Source: a virus. From it: a stretch of 57,062 nt of DNA. A model generated the notes under the pieces. That model had not been told where the DNA came from and did no database searches. It worked only from the letters and a program-made list of their open reading frames with translations. Shown in pieces: positions 15,309 through 19,304 of the stretch (position 1 is its first letter; every line of letters begins with the position of its first letter). The stretch covers positions 1 to 57,062 of IMG/VR virus record IMGVR_UViG_3300010430_000045, one strand, 5' to 3'. The translations under genes and the position numbers were made by a program.

Positions 15309-15932
15309 GTGAAGCTCAACAGCCAGAAATACAAGCTCGAGGACGTGGACTCGCTCGTCGTCCACCCCGAGAACCCGCGCACAGGCGACACCCGTAAGAT
15401 CCGGGAGTCTATCAAGGCCAACGGATTCTACGGGGTGCTCGTAGTCCAGAAGTCCACCCGCTGCGTACTCGCGGGGAACCATCGGCTGATCGCCGCTCGT
15501 GAAATGGGCGCCAAGAAGCTGCCGGTGATCTGGGTTGAGTGTTCCGACGATGAAGCGCTTCGCATCATGCTCGCCGACAACCGCACCTCGGATCTCGCCA
15601 CGTACGACAACGCGAAGCTCGCTGAGCTTCTGGAATACGTCCAGCAGGATGTTGGGACCCTGATCGGTACGGGGTACACGCTCGCTGAGTTGAGTGCACT
15701 CGCTGGGGACGTAGATCAGGACGTGGACCCGGAAGCGATGTGGACCGGGATGCCTGAGTTTCAGCAGGACGACCTCACGGCCCACCGAACGATCACAGTT
15801 TCCTTCGCCTCGGACGAGGACGTGGAGGAGTTCGCCAAGCGCCTGGAGCTGAAGACCGTCTCCGCCAAGACGAACAAGGTCTGGTTCCCGTGGCGGGAGC
15901 GCATGTACCTGACTGACAAGGTGATGAAGTGA
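15309..15932 (+). CDS. ParB/Srx-like nuclease-domain protein
   Basis: Track ORF 15249..15932(+) starts at a GTG. I prefer the GTG at 15309, which has GGAGG 8 nt upstream. ParB N-domain motifs are LVVHPENPR and AGNHRLIAAREMG. The C-terminal MPEF...ITVSF..DEDVEEFAKRL region resembles the linker of phage ParB-methylase fusions, but no methylase domain follows. Confidence 0.75.
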   Translation: MKLNSQKYKLEDVDSLVVHPENPRTGDTRKIRESIKANGFYGVLVVQKSTRCVLAGNHRLIAAREMGAKKLPVIWVECSDDEALRIMLADNRTSDLATYDNAKLAELLEYVQQDVGTLIGTGYTLAELSALAGDVDQDVDPEAMWTGMPEFQQDDLTAHRTITVSFASDEDVEEFAKRLELKTVSAKTNKVWFPWRERMYLTDKVMK

Positions 15933-16855
15933 AGATCGAGCAGCCACGATACCCGATCTACCTGCCCTCGAAGGGTCGCTACGAGACCCGGCTCACGATG
16001 AAGCAACTGGAGTGGATGCAAACGCCCCACCACATCGTCGTCGAAGAGCAGGAATACGACCAGTACGCTGCCGTCACCGACCCGAAGTTCGGCACGATTC
16101 TCGTGGTCCCGCGACGGTACTTCGAGGAGTACGAGGTTTGCGACGAGCACGGGCTGACGAAGTCCACCGGTCCAGGCCCAGCCCGGAACTTCGCCTGGGA
16201 CCACTCGACGGAGACGTACGGCGCGAAGCGGCACTGGGTTATGGACGACAACATTCGCGGGTTCGCTCGCTTCCACCGGAACCAGATCGTCAAGTGCGGC
16301 AACGGCGTGCCGTTCGCTGCCATGGAGGATTTCTGCGACCGCTACAAGAACGTCGCCATGGCTGGGCCACAGTACGAGATGTTTGCGATGGTGCGTAAGA
16401 AGTATCCACCGTTCGCGGTCAACCGCCGGATCTTCTCGTGCAACCTGATTCTGAACGAGATCCCGATGCGTTGGCGCGGCCGCTTCAACGACGACGTCAT
16501 CCTCTCGATCGACATCATGGAGGCTGGCTGGTGCACGCTGCTCTTCTACGCCTTCCTGCAGATGAAGGTTCAAACCATGCGTGTCCCGGGAGGGATGTTC
16601 GATCTGTACAAGGACGGCACGTACGAGAAGTCGAAGATGCTGGTGGACCTGTTCCCGCAGTATGCGAAGATCGTGAAGCGCTACGGGCGTGTTCATCACA
16701 GTGTCGACTACAGCCCGTTCAAGCGCAACAAGCTGGTGCCCATCGAGGGTGACATTCCGAAGCGCGAATACGCCTGCGACCTGCGCTACCGTGAGTCGGG
16801 CGAGCTCGTTGGCGACACCAGCACCAAACTCGCACCAGGGAAGGTCCATACATGA
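15929..16855 (+). CDS. Putative GT-A-fold nucleotide-sugar transferase (motif-level call only)
   Basis: Track ORF of 308 aa with a GTG start in a GTGA overlap with the ParB gene stop. An N-terminal strand, PIYLPSKGR, and an acidic VMDDN about 90 aa later match the spacing of the GT-A N-terminal motif and DxD. The protein resembles phage TET/JBP-associated-type glycosyltransferases only loosely. Confidence 0.4.
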   Translation: MKIEQPRYPIYLPSKGRYETRLTMKQLEWMQTPHHIVVEEQEYDQYAAVTDPKFGTILVVPRRYFEEYEVCDEHGLTKSTGPGPARNFAWDHSTETYGAKRHWVMDDNIRGFARFHRNQIVKCGNGVPFAAMEDFCDRYKNVAMAGPQYEMFAMVRKKYPPFAVNRRIFSCNLILNEIPMRWRGRFNDDVILSIDIMEAGWCTLLFYAFLQMKVQTMRVPGGMFDLYKDGTYEKSKMLVDLFPQYAKIVKRYGRVHHSVDYSPFKRNKLVPIEGDIPKREYACDLRYRESGELVGDTSTKLAPGKVHT

Positions 16856-17832
16856 AAGCGCTCGTCACAGGTAACCTCGGCTTCATCGGCTCGCACCTCA
16901 CTCGTGCCCTTCTGGATGCTGGCTGGGAGGTCGTCGGCATCGACAACGGGTGCACAGGCAGCGAGGCAAACCTCCGTCGCCTCGATATACCACCTGGGGC
17001 CGTCCACCAGCTCGGAGGATTGCTCGACGTGGCTGATTTGGACATTGGACCGGGGTCGTTGGCGCTGGACATCCTGCGGGATGTGACGGTCATTTTCCAC
17101 CTGGCGTGCCCCGCCTCCCCGAAGATGTATGCGGCCCACCCTCGCGCCACCTTTCGGGCGCTTTGTCAGGGCACGATGGTGCTGGCTCAGCTCAGTCAGC
17201 TGACTGACTCCACCCTCGTTCTCGCCTCGACCTCCGAGGTGTACGGCGACCCCGACTGCCATCCTCAGGAGGAGTCGTATCGGGGCGCGGTGAACACGCT
17301 CGGCCCACGCTCGATCTACGACGAGGGCAAGCGTCTCGCTGAAGCGCTGCTGTACCACTTTGCGAGCTCGTGGGTCGTGGTCCGGCTGTTCAACACCTAC
17401 GGCCCGAACATGGCCTGGGACGACGGACGGTTGCTCCCGAACCTCTTTGCTCAGGGCATCAGCGGCCACCCGTTGACGGTCTACGGAGATGGGTCGCAGA
17501 CCAGGAGCTTCTGCTACGTGAGCGATACCGTTCGGGGCATCGTCCAAGCGTACGCCTCGCCCTTGATGTTGGAGAGTCAGCACGAGCCCTGGGGCGTGTT
17601 CAACATCGGCAACGATGACGAGCGCACCGTGCTTTCGGTGGCCGAGCGCATCGCCGAGATGTACGGGGTCGAGATTGCCCGTGAAGCGCTTCCGCAAGAT
17701 GACCCCGTGAGGCGCCGCCCGGACATCACGCTCGCCCGTGAGTGCCTGGGCTGGCAACCCCGCGTCGCCTTCGATGAAGGTCTCCAGCACACGCGCGAAT
17801 ACTTCGAGCGCCTCGCCATGGAGCTGAAATGA
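16852..17832 (+). CDS. NAD-dependent SDR, UDP-glucuronate decarboxylase (UDP-xylose synthase)-like
   Basis: Track ORF of 326 aa with an ATGA overlap. The Rossmann motif is GNLGFIGSH and the catalytic residues are STSEVYGDP / YDEGK. UXS-diagnostic strings are [57 protein letters not shown] and [10 protein letters not shown]. Confidence 0.8.
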   Translation: [326 protein letters not shown]

Positions 17833-19304
17833 ATATCTGCCTCGTGATCCCCCCGTCGCCATTCCTGCTGGACGAGCGGGTCTTCGCCAGCCTCGGAGTG
17901 CTGCGTGTGGCGTCCTCGCTAGAGGCCGCTGGGCACGCCGTCACCGTGCTCGATCTCAGCGGTGTTGAAAATCACCTCGACGCCGTTGTCGCCTGCCTAT
18001 CAACCGTGGGGCCGTCCATCGTCGGCATAACTGCCACTACTCCACAAGTGCCCGCGGCCCTGGAGCTCGCCACGGTTATCCGAGACACTTCCCCGGAGGT
18101 CCGACTTATCCTCGGCGGCCCCCACGCCACCCTCGTCTACGCCTCCCGGCGCGTGAGCAGTGGCCGAGCGGAGCGACACATCCGCCAAGTCGAGGACGCG
18201 TTCGACGTCATCGTTGTCGGCGACGGCGACTTCGCCATCCACACAGCCATCGGCGACGACCCACCGAAGGTCGTGGACGCCGACGACACGAAGAGCCCGC
18301 ACTGGATGTCCAGCAAGGACTTCGACGAGCTTCCGCTCCCCGCCCGCCACCTGATCGACATGAGCTCGTACCACTACGAGATTGACGGGAGGAAGGCGAC
18401 GAGCATCATCAGCCAGCTGGGCTGCCCCTTCCGCTGCGGCTTTTGCGGTGGGCGAAGCTCCAGGGCGTTCCGGGTCATACGGTCGAGGAGTGCCGCGTCC
18501 GTGGTGCGTGAGATTGCCCACCTGCACCAGGTCTACGGCTACGAAGGTTTCATGTTCCAAGATGACGAGCTGAACGTGAACCGTGGCTTCGTGGACCTCC
18601 TGAAGGCGATTTGCGAATACCAGGACGCACACGGCGTCGAGTTCCGCATGCGGGGCTTTATCAAGTCGCAACTGCTCACCGAGGAACAGGCGGAGTGGAT
18701 GTATCGTGCAGGCTGGCGCTGGATTCTGACGGGCTTCGAGGCGGCCGACGACGGCATCCTCGAGAGTATCTCCAAAGGTGCAACGCTGGAGGAAAATACG
18801 AGGTGCGTCCGCATCGTCAAAGCCGCTGGCATGAAGATCAAAGCGTTGATGTCCGTCGGCCACCCCGGCGAGTCGCGCGAGTCCATCGCCGCCATCTCGG
18901 AATGGCTCATCGCCGAGGACGTGGACGACTTCGACTGCACCGTGATCACTTGCTACCCCGGCACGCCTTACTACGACCAGGCCATCAAGCACGAGACGCT
19001 GGATGGCGTGTGGACGTACACCCACGCCAAGACGGGTGAGCGCTTGCACTCCATCGACCTCGACTACACGTCCACGCCTGACTACTACAAAGGCGACCCC
19101 AACGATGGATATCGAGCGTACGTCTTCACCGACCATCTCGACCAGGCTGAGATTGTTGAGCTTCGCGACGAGGTCGAGGCAACGGTGCGTCGCGAGCTTG
19201 GAATTCCGTACTATCAGGCCTCAGCAGCGCTCCGATACGAGCATTCGATGGGGCAGGGATTGCCTGGTTTCATGCTGAAATACGACCCTCGCGCCAATGC
19301 GTGA
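17829..19304 (+). CDS. B12-binding-domain radical SAM enzyme (class B rSAM)
   Basis: Track ORF of 491 aa with an ATGA overlap. The N-terminal cobalamin-binding-like Rossmann region is ICLVIPP...GVLRVASSLEAAGHAVTVLDL...IVGITATT...ILGGPHAT. The radical SAM cluster motif CPFRCGFC lies at nt 18423-18446. Confidence 0.8.
   Translation: MNICLVIPPSPFLLDERVFASLGVLRVASSLEAAGHAVTVLDLSGVENHLDAVVACLSTVGPSIVGITATTPQVPAALELATVIRDTSPEVRLILGGPHATLVYASRRVSSGRAERHIRQVEDAFDVIVVGDGDFAIHTAIGDDPPKVVDADDTKSPHWMSSKDFDELPLPARHLIDMSSYHYEIDGRKATSIISQLGCPFRCGFCGGRSSRAFRVIRSRSAASVVREIAHLHQVYGYEGFMFQDDELNVNRGFVDLLKAICEYQDAHGVEFRMRGFIKSQLLTEEQAEWMYRAGWRWILTGFEAADDGILESISKGATLEENTRCVRIVKAAGMKIKALMSVGHPGESRESIAAISEWLIAEDVDDFDCTVITCYPGTPYYDQAIKHETLDGVWTYTHAKTGERLHSIDLDYTSTPDYYKGDPNDGYRAYVFTDHLDQAEIVELRDEVEATVRRELGIPYYQASAALRYEHSMGQGLPGFMLKYDPRANA

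Follow-up and report, generated by a model that had tools for sequence, protein, structure and literature searches.

A two-module phage cassette joining a TAGT-family glycosyltransferase to a UXS-type decarboxylase and a class-B radical SAM enzyme: a candidate pathway for DNA pentosylation

Results

A four-gene cassette in a complete phage genome

The IMG/VR virus record IMGVR_UViG_3300010430_000045 (57,062 nucleotides, analysed at its full length and termed here the window) contains a cassette of four overlapping plus-strand genes at positions 15309-19304. In order, these encode a ParB-like protein ending in a dedicated glycosyltransferase-partner domain, a TAGT-family GT-A glycosyltransferase, a UXS-type extended short-chain dehydrogenase/reductase (SDR), and a radical S-adenosylmethionine (rSAM) enzyme of class-B architecture. 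Start and stop codons overlap at all three junctions (GTGA at 15929, ATGA at 16852 and ATGA at 17829), and each of the four open reading frames (ORFs) shows a coding signature of high G+C at third codon positions, confirming the four coupled genes recognized in an initial annotation made from the sequence alone. Because the window ends in an exact 123-bp terminal overlap (1-123 = 56940-57062), the contig is complete and circularly closed, representing a phage genome of ~56.9 kb. Its G+C content is 62%, and no tRNA, DNA polymerase or integrase genes were detected in it. Megablast of the cassette region against 50,697 GenBank phage records returned zero matches, and the large terminase (TerL) is at most 38% identical to that of any phage; the lineage is an uncultured one without a close cultured relative.

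A two-part glycosyltransferase unit

The second gene of the cassette (15929..16855, +) encodes a 308-aa protein that matches Pfam PF20691 (TET-Associated Glycosyltransferase, TAGT) over the full model (1-205), scoring 133.4 bits against a cut-off of 27.5 (E 1.3e-38), and also matches PHROG 842 (phrog_842, "beta-glucosyl-HMC-alpha-glucosyltransferase") with an E-value of 5e-41. Top Foldseek matches of its AlphaFold (AF2) model (pLDDT 90, pTM 0.89) in the PDB are exclusively GT-A glycosyltransferases, and the best matches in BFVD are TAGT proteins (TM 0.81/0.90). The motif PIYLPSKGR occupies residues 9-17 and the DxD-type motif VMDDN residues 104-108, with D106, D107 and N108 invariant in a 30-sequence family alignment. 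The protein, initially annotated as GT-A-like, is a TAGT-family GT-A glycosyltransferase: the structural comparison returned a GT-A fold, where the absence of any glycosyltransferase fold would have spoken against that assignment. TAGT is a phage family, to which the T2/T6 enzyme that adds a second glucose to glucosyl-hydroxymethylcytosine (hmC) DNA belongs (PMC13390438, PMC13216743).

The TAGT of the window is the most deviant of the compared homologues. Together with its counterpart in the only other copy of the cassette (locus L103, see below), it shares six substitutions at positions that are at least 93% conserved in 118 other homologues, including the loss of a 100%-conserved Tyr and an N223M change in the flexible loop 217-227. 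These changes are consistent with an altered donor or acceptor specificity. A separate group of marine contigs with T4-like replication genes (L055-L065; e.g., L063 11050-12460) has TAGT adjoining genes for KDO-8-phosphate synthase, CMP-KDO synthetase, UDP-glucose dehydrogenase, a cupin and a cytidylyltransferase, which hints at further unusual donor sugars for this family.

The first gene, at 15309 (or 15249)..15932 (+), encodes a protein with an N-terminal ParB_N (ParB/Srx) domain at residues ~27-91 and a C-terminal domain (CTD) at residues ~145-206 (nt ~15741-15926), the latter marked by the motif WxGMPEF...W-F-P. It matches the ParB-like PHROG 723 with an E-value of 7e-38, and Pfam identifies no helix-turn-helix (HTH) DNA-binding domain in it. 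A match to this protein lies immediately upstream of TAGT in 54 of the 74 IMG/VR loci that encode a TAGT relative, and in 13 IMG/VR loci the CTD is fused to the N-terminus of TAGT itself (13 ORFs). When the CTD was used in a full HMMER search, it recovered 1,152 representatives, and the best 150 of these included 100 ParB_N+CTD proteins and 40 stand-alone CTDs. A TAGT-independent sample, collected through a pattern scan of viral contigs for DNA that encodes W-x-G-M-P-E-F, yielded 115 CTD-bearing ORFs. Of these, 109 are either fused to TAGT or situated upstream of it at a distance of no more than 1.5 kb, which makes the CTD a near-obligate partner of TAGT; in three of the remaining six, TAGT is encoded at another position of the locus, two others are truncated at a contig end, and one has no TAGT. 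ParB_N is attached to the CTD in 43 of the 115 copies and is thus a frequent N-terminal addition. The protein had been taken for a ParB-like nuclease, and the ParB likeness stands (marginally so in Pfam), but it is better called a TAGT accessory subunit, composed of ParB_N and a TAGT-partner domain.

Cultured phages also encode the CTD and TAGT as one protein: the annotated TAGTs of phiAS5 and POP12 (Straboviridae), Kuja (Ackermannviridae, two tandem copies) and Vibrio phage 1.076.O are all such fusions (CTD hidden Markov model (HMM) E 1e-12 to 5e-19). Another fusion form of the TAGT and ParB families is a 504-aa protein encoded upstream of TAGT in L022 (1372-2886), which combines a weakly TAGT-like N-terminal half (26.9 bits, just below the cut-off) with a ParB_N domain. 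The usual gene order in small phages is ParB-TAGT-small ORF-TerL-portal. In the window, the gene following the cassette (19389..19922, +) encodes an HTH protein (Pfam HTH_11) that is possibly a small terminase (TerS-like), and homologues of this gene directly follow ParB-TAGT in two loci that lack the SDR-rSAM insert (L049/L142). By synteny, the ParB-TAGT pair therefore belongs to a packaging module, ParB-TAGT-TerS-TerL-portal, and ParB_N-CTD plus TAGT, termed here module 1, is a widespread two-part glycosyltransferase unit of phages.

A UXS-type decarboxylase paired with a radical SAM enzyme

The third gene (16852..17832, +) encodes an SDR that aligns to human UXS1 with 232 bits, as against at most 98 bits to any other solved SDR structure. 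The alignment covers the eight-residue segment with the GxxGxxG NAD+ motif, ASTSE and YDEGK, as well as the catalytic segments (a 16-residue segment, FNTxGP and GSQTR), so that all strings earlier quoted in support of a UXS-type enzyme are present and aligned. Kept among these are the UXS-specific features, namely the Glu after the catalytic Thr, FNTxGP, and GSQTR with its catalytic Arg, whose roles we take to be those established for UXS1. The closest database homologues are named UDP-glucuronate decarboxylase and are 44-49% identical. The SDR is thus a member of the UXS-type UDP-glucuronate decarboxylase family by sequence, with decarboxylation its predicted activity, and it may also have related SDR activities, such as the release of UDP-4-keto-pentose or the decarboxylation of UDP-GlcNAcA.

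TAGT and UXS are also linked in an independent, AT-rich lineage (L111/L266/L267; L266 465-3360), which encodes a stand-alone CTD (87 aa), a TAGT (293 aa), a weak TAGT paralogue (278 aa) and a bona fide UXS-type SDR (309 aa), immediately after which the L111/L266 contig stops. This linkage thus arose at least twice. We also searched for a specificity signature common to all three UXS-linked TAGTs and rejected it: only L197M is shared, and the variant of the DGTx[DE]KS loop is also found in a further five homologues, making it suggestive only.

The 491-aa product of the fourth gene (17829..19304, +) consists of an N-terminal B12-binding-type Rossmann domain and a CxxxCxxC radical SAM core. Both Pfam domains exceed their curated cut-offs (PF04055, Radical_SAM, 83.9 bits; PF02310, B12-binding, 49.2 bits), and the cluster motif CPFRCGFC is encoded at 18423-18446, in line with the original description; its cysteines C199, C203 and C206 are invariant in the family. 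The AlphaFold model (pLDDT 82) matches TsrM, AprD4, MgmA, CysS, TokK and OxsB in Foldseek. TsrM, MgmA, CysS and TokK are cobalamin methylases; AprD4 and OxsB, neither of which is a methylase, have sugars or nucleosides as substrates. Because AprD4 is not known to use cobalamin, class-B architecture by itself is no proof of cobalamin use; the window enzyme is of class-B architecture and may use cobalamin. When compared with NCBIfam equivalogs (BchE, HpnJ, PhpK, HpnR, AprD4 and others), all 22 matches fell far below cut-off, the best being BchE with 110.7 of the 481 bits required. The family is very large (>4,700 clusters, hundreds of them 57-61% identical to the window protein, with a mean column identity of 65%), and no member carries a functional name.

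To place the enzyme in context, we compared 78 further loci encoding its relatives, 20 of them viral (IMG/VR) and 58 bacterial. Its neighbours there are GT2, GT4, GT47/exostosin-like, RXYLT1-like and GT17 transferases, UDP-glucose dehydrogenase, DegT aminotransferases, Methyltransf_23 proteins, flippases and NDP-sugar enzymes. Of the 58 bacterial loci, 11 encode a UXS-type SDR no more than three genes away from the rSAM gene; in five the two genes are direct neighbours, and locus L228 of Acanthopleuribacter pedis repeats the gene order of the window. These SDRs are 38-43% identical to that of the window (230-256 bits), as compared with 25-30% for generic SDRs. The UXS-rSAM pair is therefore a recurrent donor-sugar module of bacterial glycan (polysaccharide) clusters. 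This pair, termed here module 2, has been inserted between TAGT and the TerS-like gene in the phage lineage of the window. In at least five bacterial loci (L187-L193, L223; e.g., L188 9497-10597), a conserved ~366-aa protein with the motifs WDWDNHHW and GGIP[IL][IV]P is encoded between or beside rSAM and UXS. It has no Pfam match, and neither an iterative HMM search nor hhalign comparisons with the GT47/RXYLT1-like neighbours and TAGT gave a significant result; it may be the cognate transferase of the bacterial UXS-rSAM module.

Relatives of the rSAM enzyme are absent from the 50,697 GenBank phage records, so that the earlier claim that a B12-type rSAM enzyme in a phage sugar context had not been described holds for those records and fails for IMG/VR, whose 20 viral loci show that such genes are not rare in viral sugar clusters from metagenomes; in combination with TAGT, such an enzyme was found solely in the lineage of the window and L103. 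In one of the viral loci, L100 (8001-12362; also L101 and L102), a member of the family directly follows the major capsid gene and is accompanied by a Methyltransf_23 gene and a gene with faint likeness to MptE. Other radical SAM genes accompany ParB-TAGT in a marine viral contig (L062 5639-9490; also L080), where three tandem paralogues of 419-430 aa lie directly upstream of the pair. These were considered as relatives of the window enzyme and ruled out, being unrelated to it beyond the core and showing a faint resemblance (E 0.003) to the radical SAM glucuronate decarboxylase BlsE.

Rarity and conservation of the whole cassette

One further copy of the complete cassette was found, on a 6.4-kb contig from another sample (L103) with a G+C content of 55%. 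In gene order, its proteins are 62, 74, 66 and 79% identical to those of the window, synonymous sites are near saturation, and the ratio of nonsynonymous to synonymous substitution rates (dN/dS) is 0.09-0.21 for all four genes, showing that all four are under purifying selection. Beyond L103, the next relatives in databases of about 15 billion proteins are 58% (TAGT), 49% (SDR) and 61% (rSAM) identical, and these searches turned up no additional cassette. Neither did a metagenome scan with TAGT, in which the best match was 56% identical, and a scan of IMG/VR with the SDR detected generic SDRs only. Codon usage and G+C content of the cassette resemble those of the rest of the genome.

Genomic setting

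A divergent intergenic region of ~500 bp (14808..15308) separates a leftward (replication) arm, whose last gene ends at 14807, from a rightward arm that begins with the cassette. The region contains a single weak sigma-70-like match at 14888-14916 (+), and a GGAGG ribosome-binding site lies 8 nt upstream of the GTG at 15309. The leftward arm encodes a primase-helicase, a DUF669 protein, an AAA_24 ATPase, a PD-(D/E)XK nuclease, a RusA-like protein and a WGR-VWA/MoxR pair. On the rightward arm, the cassette is followed by the HTH (TerS-like) gene, genes of unassigned function, and those for a DUF5131 protein, lysin, TerL, portal, MuF, protease, capsid, tail and baseplate. The cassette thus comprises the first rightward genes, as originally proposed, but its description as "early" finds no support because it heads the packaging/structural arm, with the replication genes on the other side.

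Several other features of the genome deserve mention. The replication arm includes a MoxR-VWA module (9438-14070, -) in which a WGR+VWA protein (9438..11177) is followed by a bpMoxR-type AAA+ ATPase (11204..12367; PF20030, "MoxR-vWA-beta-propeller ternary systems"), and beside these lies the gene for a 532-aa protein of no assigned function (12472..14070, -) that is also kept in L103. On the opposite arm, a 452-aa protein (22739-24097, +) without Pfam, NCBIfam or PDB match has a Cys-rich C-terminus with several CxxC pairs; CxxC pairs are likewise present in a 246-aa protein at 14067..14807 (-).

Discussion

A candidate pathway for pentosylation of phage DNA

With about even confidence, we favour a reading in which the cassette makes a UXS-derived, rSAM-tailored pentose that TAGT places post-replicatively on phage DNA. 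The UXS-type enzyme would decarboxylate host UDP-glucuronate, which we infer to be the starting donor, to UDP-xylose via a 4-keto-pentose intermediate. The rSAM enzyme would then tailor the pentose, either on the nucleotide sugar or after its transfer. C-methylation is the most probable reaction because most solved structural neighbours are cobalamin methylases and because a chemical precedent exists in GenD1, which acts on a ring derived from xylose (PMC12689558); radical dehydration (AprD4-like) or rearrangement (HpnJ/OxsB-like) would be the alternative. The C-methylated pentose of the initial annotation accordingly remains one option, qualified by the presence of the non-methylating AprD4 and OxsB among the nearest solved relatives. 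For the transfer step, the CTD would bind or activate TAGT, and ParB_N would engage double-stranded DNA (dsDNA), targeting or activating the transferase, an assumption modelled on the phage thymine dioxygenases and their ParB activators. TAGT would act post-replicatively, at about the stage of packaging, and move the pentose onto phage DNA, where the sugar could shield the genome against host nucleases.

We assign the pathway to DNA because of the family membership of TAGT, the CTD-TAGT unit shared with phages of the hydroxymethyl-pyrimidine kind, the linkage to ParB_N, and the experimental finding that phage ParB homologues consisting of an N-terminal domain and a CTD, but lacking a DNA-binding domain, serve as activators of a cognate enzyme that modifies DNA bases, an activation specific to dsDNA (PMC13229309). 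The suggestion that the ParB linkage favours DNA had already been made, and it is strengthened by this experiment and by the 109 of 115 CTD copies that accompany TAGT.

Several observations weigh against pentosylation of DNA, and the most serious concerns the acceptor. Pfam scans of all plausible ORFs found no TET/5mYOX, ThyA-like hydroxymethylase, C5-methyltransferase, hydroxymethyluracil (hmU) kinase or AADT, and because the genome is complete and devoid of any such enzyme, it has no known route to a hydroxylated base. The lack of a base hydroxymethylase had been remarked on from the outset, and the problem becomes more acute now that the contig is recognized as a complete genome; the TET/JBP (5mYOX) dioxygenase association that gives the TAGT family its name, or any other hydroxymethyl-pyrimidine source, is likewise absent from it. 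The ParB-like protein presents difficulties of its own: ParB_N scores 25.6 bits, marginally under the Pfam cut-off of 26.3, and the position of the GERRxR CTP-binding/hydrolysis box reads AGNHRL (AGNHRLIAA), so that, unlike chromosome-segregation ParB, the protein has neither this box nor a central HTH. Furthermore, the closest solved relative of the rSAM enzyme by sequence is AprD4, a non-methylase, and its family includes no characterised member; neither TAGT nor ParB was found in any of the 78 other rSAM loci; and in one phage (L100-L102) the rSAM gene comes right after the capsid gene, a context that suggests a role for the family in a virion-associated glycan or another part of the structural module. 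Finally, ~65% of phage glycosyltransferase (GT) contigs have no base-modification neighbours, and GTs without such neighbours are regarded as less obviously directed at DNA (Pyle et al., bioRxiv 10.1101/2023.12.21.572611).

PDB sequence searches with the products of 20023..20991 and 22739..24097 and with the DUF5131 protein produced no candidate acceptor-making enzyme. The DUF5131 protein (21504-22400, +; E 9e-97) has a C-x5-C-x2-C cluster, and in RadicalSAM.org DUF5131 is classified within the radical SAM superfamily as a neighbour of spore photoproduct lyase. As a conserved acceptor-making partner it was ruled out, occurring in one unique locus of 158 TAGT loci. The missing acceptor pathway is not peculiar to the phage of the window: Vibrio phage 1.076.O has no annotated hydroxymethyl-pyrimidine pathway, nor was one seen in the small-phage ParB-TAGT loci that we inspected. 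The difficulty could be resolved in three ways: a priming enzyme of unrecognised type, action of TAGT on an unprimed acceptor, or an acceptor other than DNA. That no known base-priming enzyme takes part, and that the pentose is set on a canonical base itself or on an acceptor produced by an unrecognised enzyme, seems doubtful to us. If true, this would define a way of glycosylating DNA independently of TET and ThyA, and a very large, cross-phylum family of class-B rSAM enzymes would gain its first function.

Other explanations for the cassette

The same pentose pathway could serve an acceptor other than DNA, with the CTD-partnered TAGT glycosylating either a molecule of the host envelope or a protein of the virion, be it portal, capsid or tail, and with ParB_N having a role unrelated to targeting. 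Virion glycosylation by phage-encoded GTs is known from mycobacteriophages. Besides the lack of an acceptor-generating enzyme in the complete genome and the many phage GT contigs without base-modification neighbours, this explanation draws on the position of the cassette at the head of the packaging/structural arm, on the CTD-TAGT gene of Vibrio phage 1.076.O, which lies between the portal and a MuF-like gene, and on the occurrence of the rSAM family both beside a capsid gene and in bacterial surface-polysaccharide clusters. We nevertheless regard it as possible rather than likely: T4-like and Ackermannviridae phages have the same CTD-TAGT unit, the sole characterised member of the TAGT family works on DNA, ParB_N is joined to more than a third of the sampled CTDs (43/115), ParB homologues are demonstrated partners of DNA-modifying enzymes (PMC13229309), and the cassette encodes no signal peptide, membrane segment or lipid-carrier enzyme. 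The acceptor problem would disappear altogether if the rSAM enzyme itself primed the DNA as an oxygen-independent substitute for TET/JBP, for example by hydroxylating the thymine methyl group, and TAGT then added plain, UXS-made xylose. The best sub-threshold NCBIfam match of the enzyme, BchE, is indeed the anaerobic counterpart of an O2-dependent oxygenase, and radical SAM genes stand directly upstream of ParB-TAGT in L062/L080 as well. We consider such priming quite improbable, however, given that the window enzyme is 57-61% identical to bacterial members in polysaccharide clusters without DNA-related genes, that it is recurrently paired with UXS, that TAGT and ParB accompany none of its 78 relatives, and that the L062 genes share no more than the core with it.

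The SDR and rSAM genes (and the GT) might also represent a recently captured host lipopolysaccharide (LPS) or capsule moron with no dedicated phage function, since the rSAM and UXS pair is native to bacterial polysaccharide clusters. To this idea, already largely refuted, we attach hardly any credence because the best bacterial identities are just 61% (rSAM) and 49% (SDR), codon usage and G+C content match the rest of the genome, and the cassette is under purifying selection in L103, where synonymous sites are near saturation and G+C content is 55% as against 62%. The translational coupling of the four genes and the fact that TAGT is a phage family also speak against it, and the earlier expectation that the genes would not prove to be a near-identical host moron is upheld.

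Significance

DNA hypermodifications allow phages to overcome restriction and CRISPR nucleases; they also make sequencing more difficult and are a source of biotechnological enzymes. Under the favoured reading, pentosylation of phage DNA, the locus would add to them a donor branch of UXS plus class-B rSAM that is unseen in any cultured phage, and a two-part TAGT would extend the ParB-activator principle from dioxygenases to glycosyltransferases. Solving the function of the rSAM enzyme here would annotate thousands of family members in bacterial glycan clusters. The complete 57-kb genome also offers a clean test case for what TAGT targets when a hydroxymethyl-pyrimidine pathway is lacking, as it is in most of the small-phage ParB-TAGT loci examined. 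The interest of the locus thus rests mainly on its experimental tractability and on the annotation of two very large families.

Comparison with known systems

The beta-glucosyl-HMC-alpha-glucosyltransferase of T2/T6 has the Pfam family PF20691 and the GT-A fold in common with the TAGT of the window, and the T4-like TAGT homologues carry at their N-terminus the CTD that the window encodes at the end of its ParB gene. The T2/T6 enzyme is, however, about 45% identical or less to that of the window, and the T6 enzyme uses UDP-glucose as donor and glucosyl-hmC as acceptor, the latter supplied by a dCMP hydroxymethylase pathway that is absent from the window genome. The closest parallel to the accessory subunit is found in the ParB-dependent phage thymine dioxygenases (5mYOX176/ParB176), in which a small ParB homologue, likewise without a recognisable DNA-binding domain, is encoded beside its DNA-modifying client (PMC13229309). 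There the client is a dioxygenase whereas here it is a glycosyltransferase, the likeness, an N-terminal ParB domain and a C-terminal domain, is one of layout, and the CTP-binding box (AGNHRL) is not conserved in the window protein.

For the rSAM enzyme, the best solved relative is AprD4 (PDB 6fd2), a radical SAM 1,2-diol dehydratase of apramycin biosynthesis (E 8e-15, TM 0.65/0.69), which has the same two-domain architecture and acts on a sugar ring, but is only 17-18% identical and is not paired with a UXS. The gentamicin garosamine pathway, in which UDP-xylose transfer by GenM2 is followed by C-4'' methylation by the cobalamin rSAM enzyme GenD1 (PMC12689558), resembles the proposed pathway in that a UDP-xylose-derived xylose unit is tailored by a cobalamin-type rSAM enzyme. 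As an actinomycete antibiotic route with a small-molecule acceptor, it serves as a chemical precedent.

At the level of whole gene clusters, phage pairs of GT and SDR epimerase are known to glycosylate 5-hydroxymethylcytosine (5hmC) in DNA, and the "subclass II" clusters of Pyle et al. place a GT and a sugar epimerase beside a C5-methyltransferase and 5mYOX/TET (bioRxiv 10.1101/2023.12.21.572611). They and the cassette both feature a GT-A enzyme next to a donor-supplying SDR, ParB-like neighbours, and repurposed bacterial surface-glycan enzymes. In contrast to these clusters, the genome described here is without C5-methyltransferase, 5mYOX and ThyS, its SDR is a decarboxylase (UXS) and not an epimerase, and a class-B rSAM enzyme is added, a group of which that paper makes no mention. 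Pentosylated cytosine has been reported in phage DNA along with a phage enzyme that forms UDP-xylose (PMC12838424), and both arabinosyl-5-hydroxycytosine in RB69-like phages and a deoxypentose in Shewanella phage Thanatos are five-carbon DNA sugars supplied as phage-made activated pentoses (PMC13390438, PMC12838424). Those phages differ in having a ThyA-family acceptor enzyme, activation of the kinase/nucleotidyltransferase type and other GTs, with neither UXS nor rSAM.

DNA-glycosylating pairs of phage GT and SDR, pentosylated phage cytosine and ParB-activated DNA modification have thus all been published, and the type of pathway is not undescribed, contrary to what the initial annotation had suggested. 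What is new is the joining of a UXS and class-B rSAM donor module to TAGT, a link of which our literature search found no account, together with a "ParB" partner that carries a dedicated TAGT-partner domain and a complete genome that poses the question of the acceptor cleanly.

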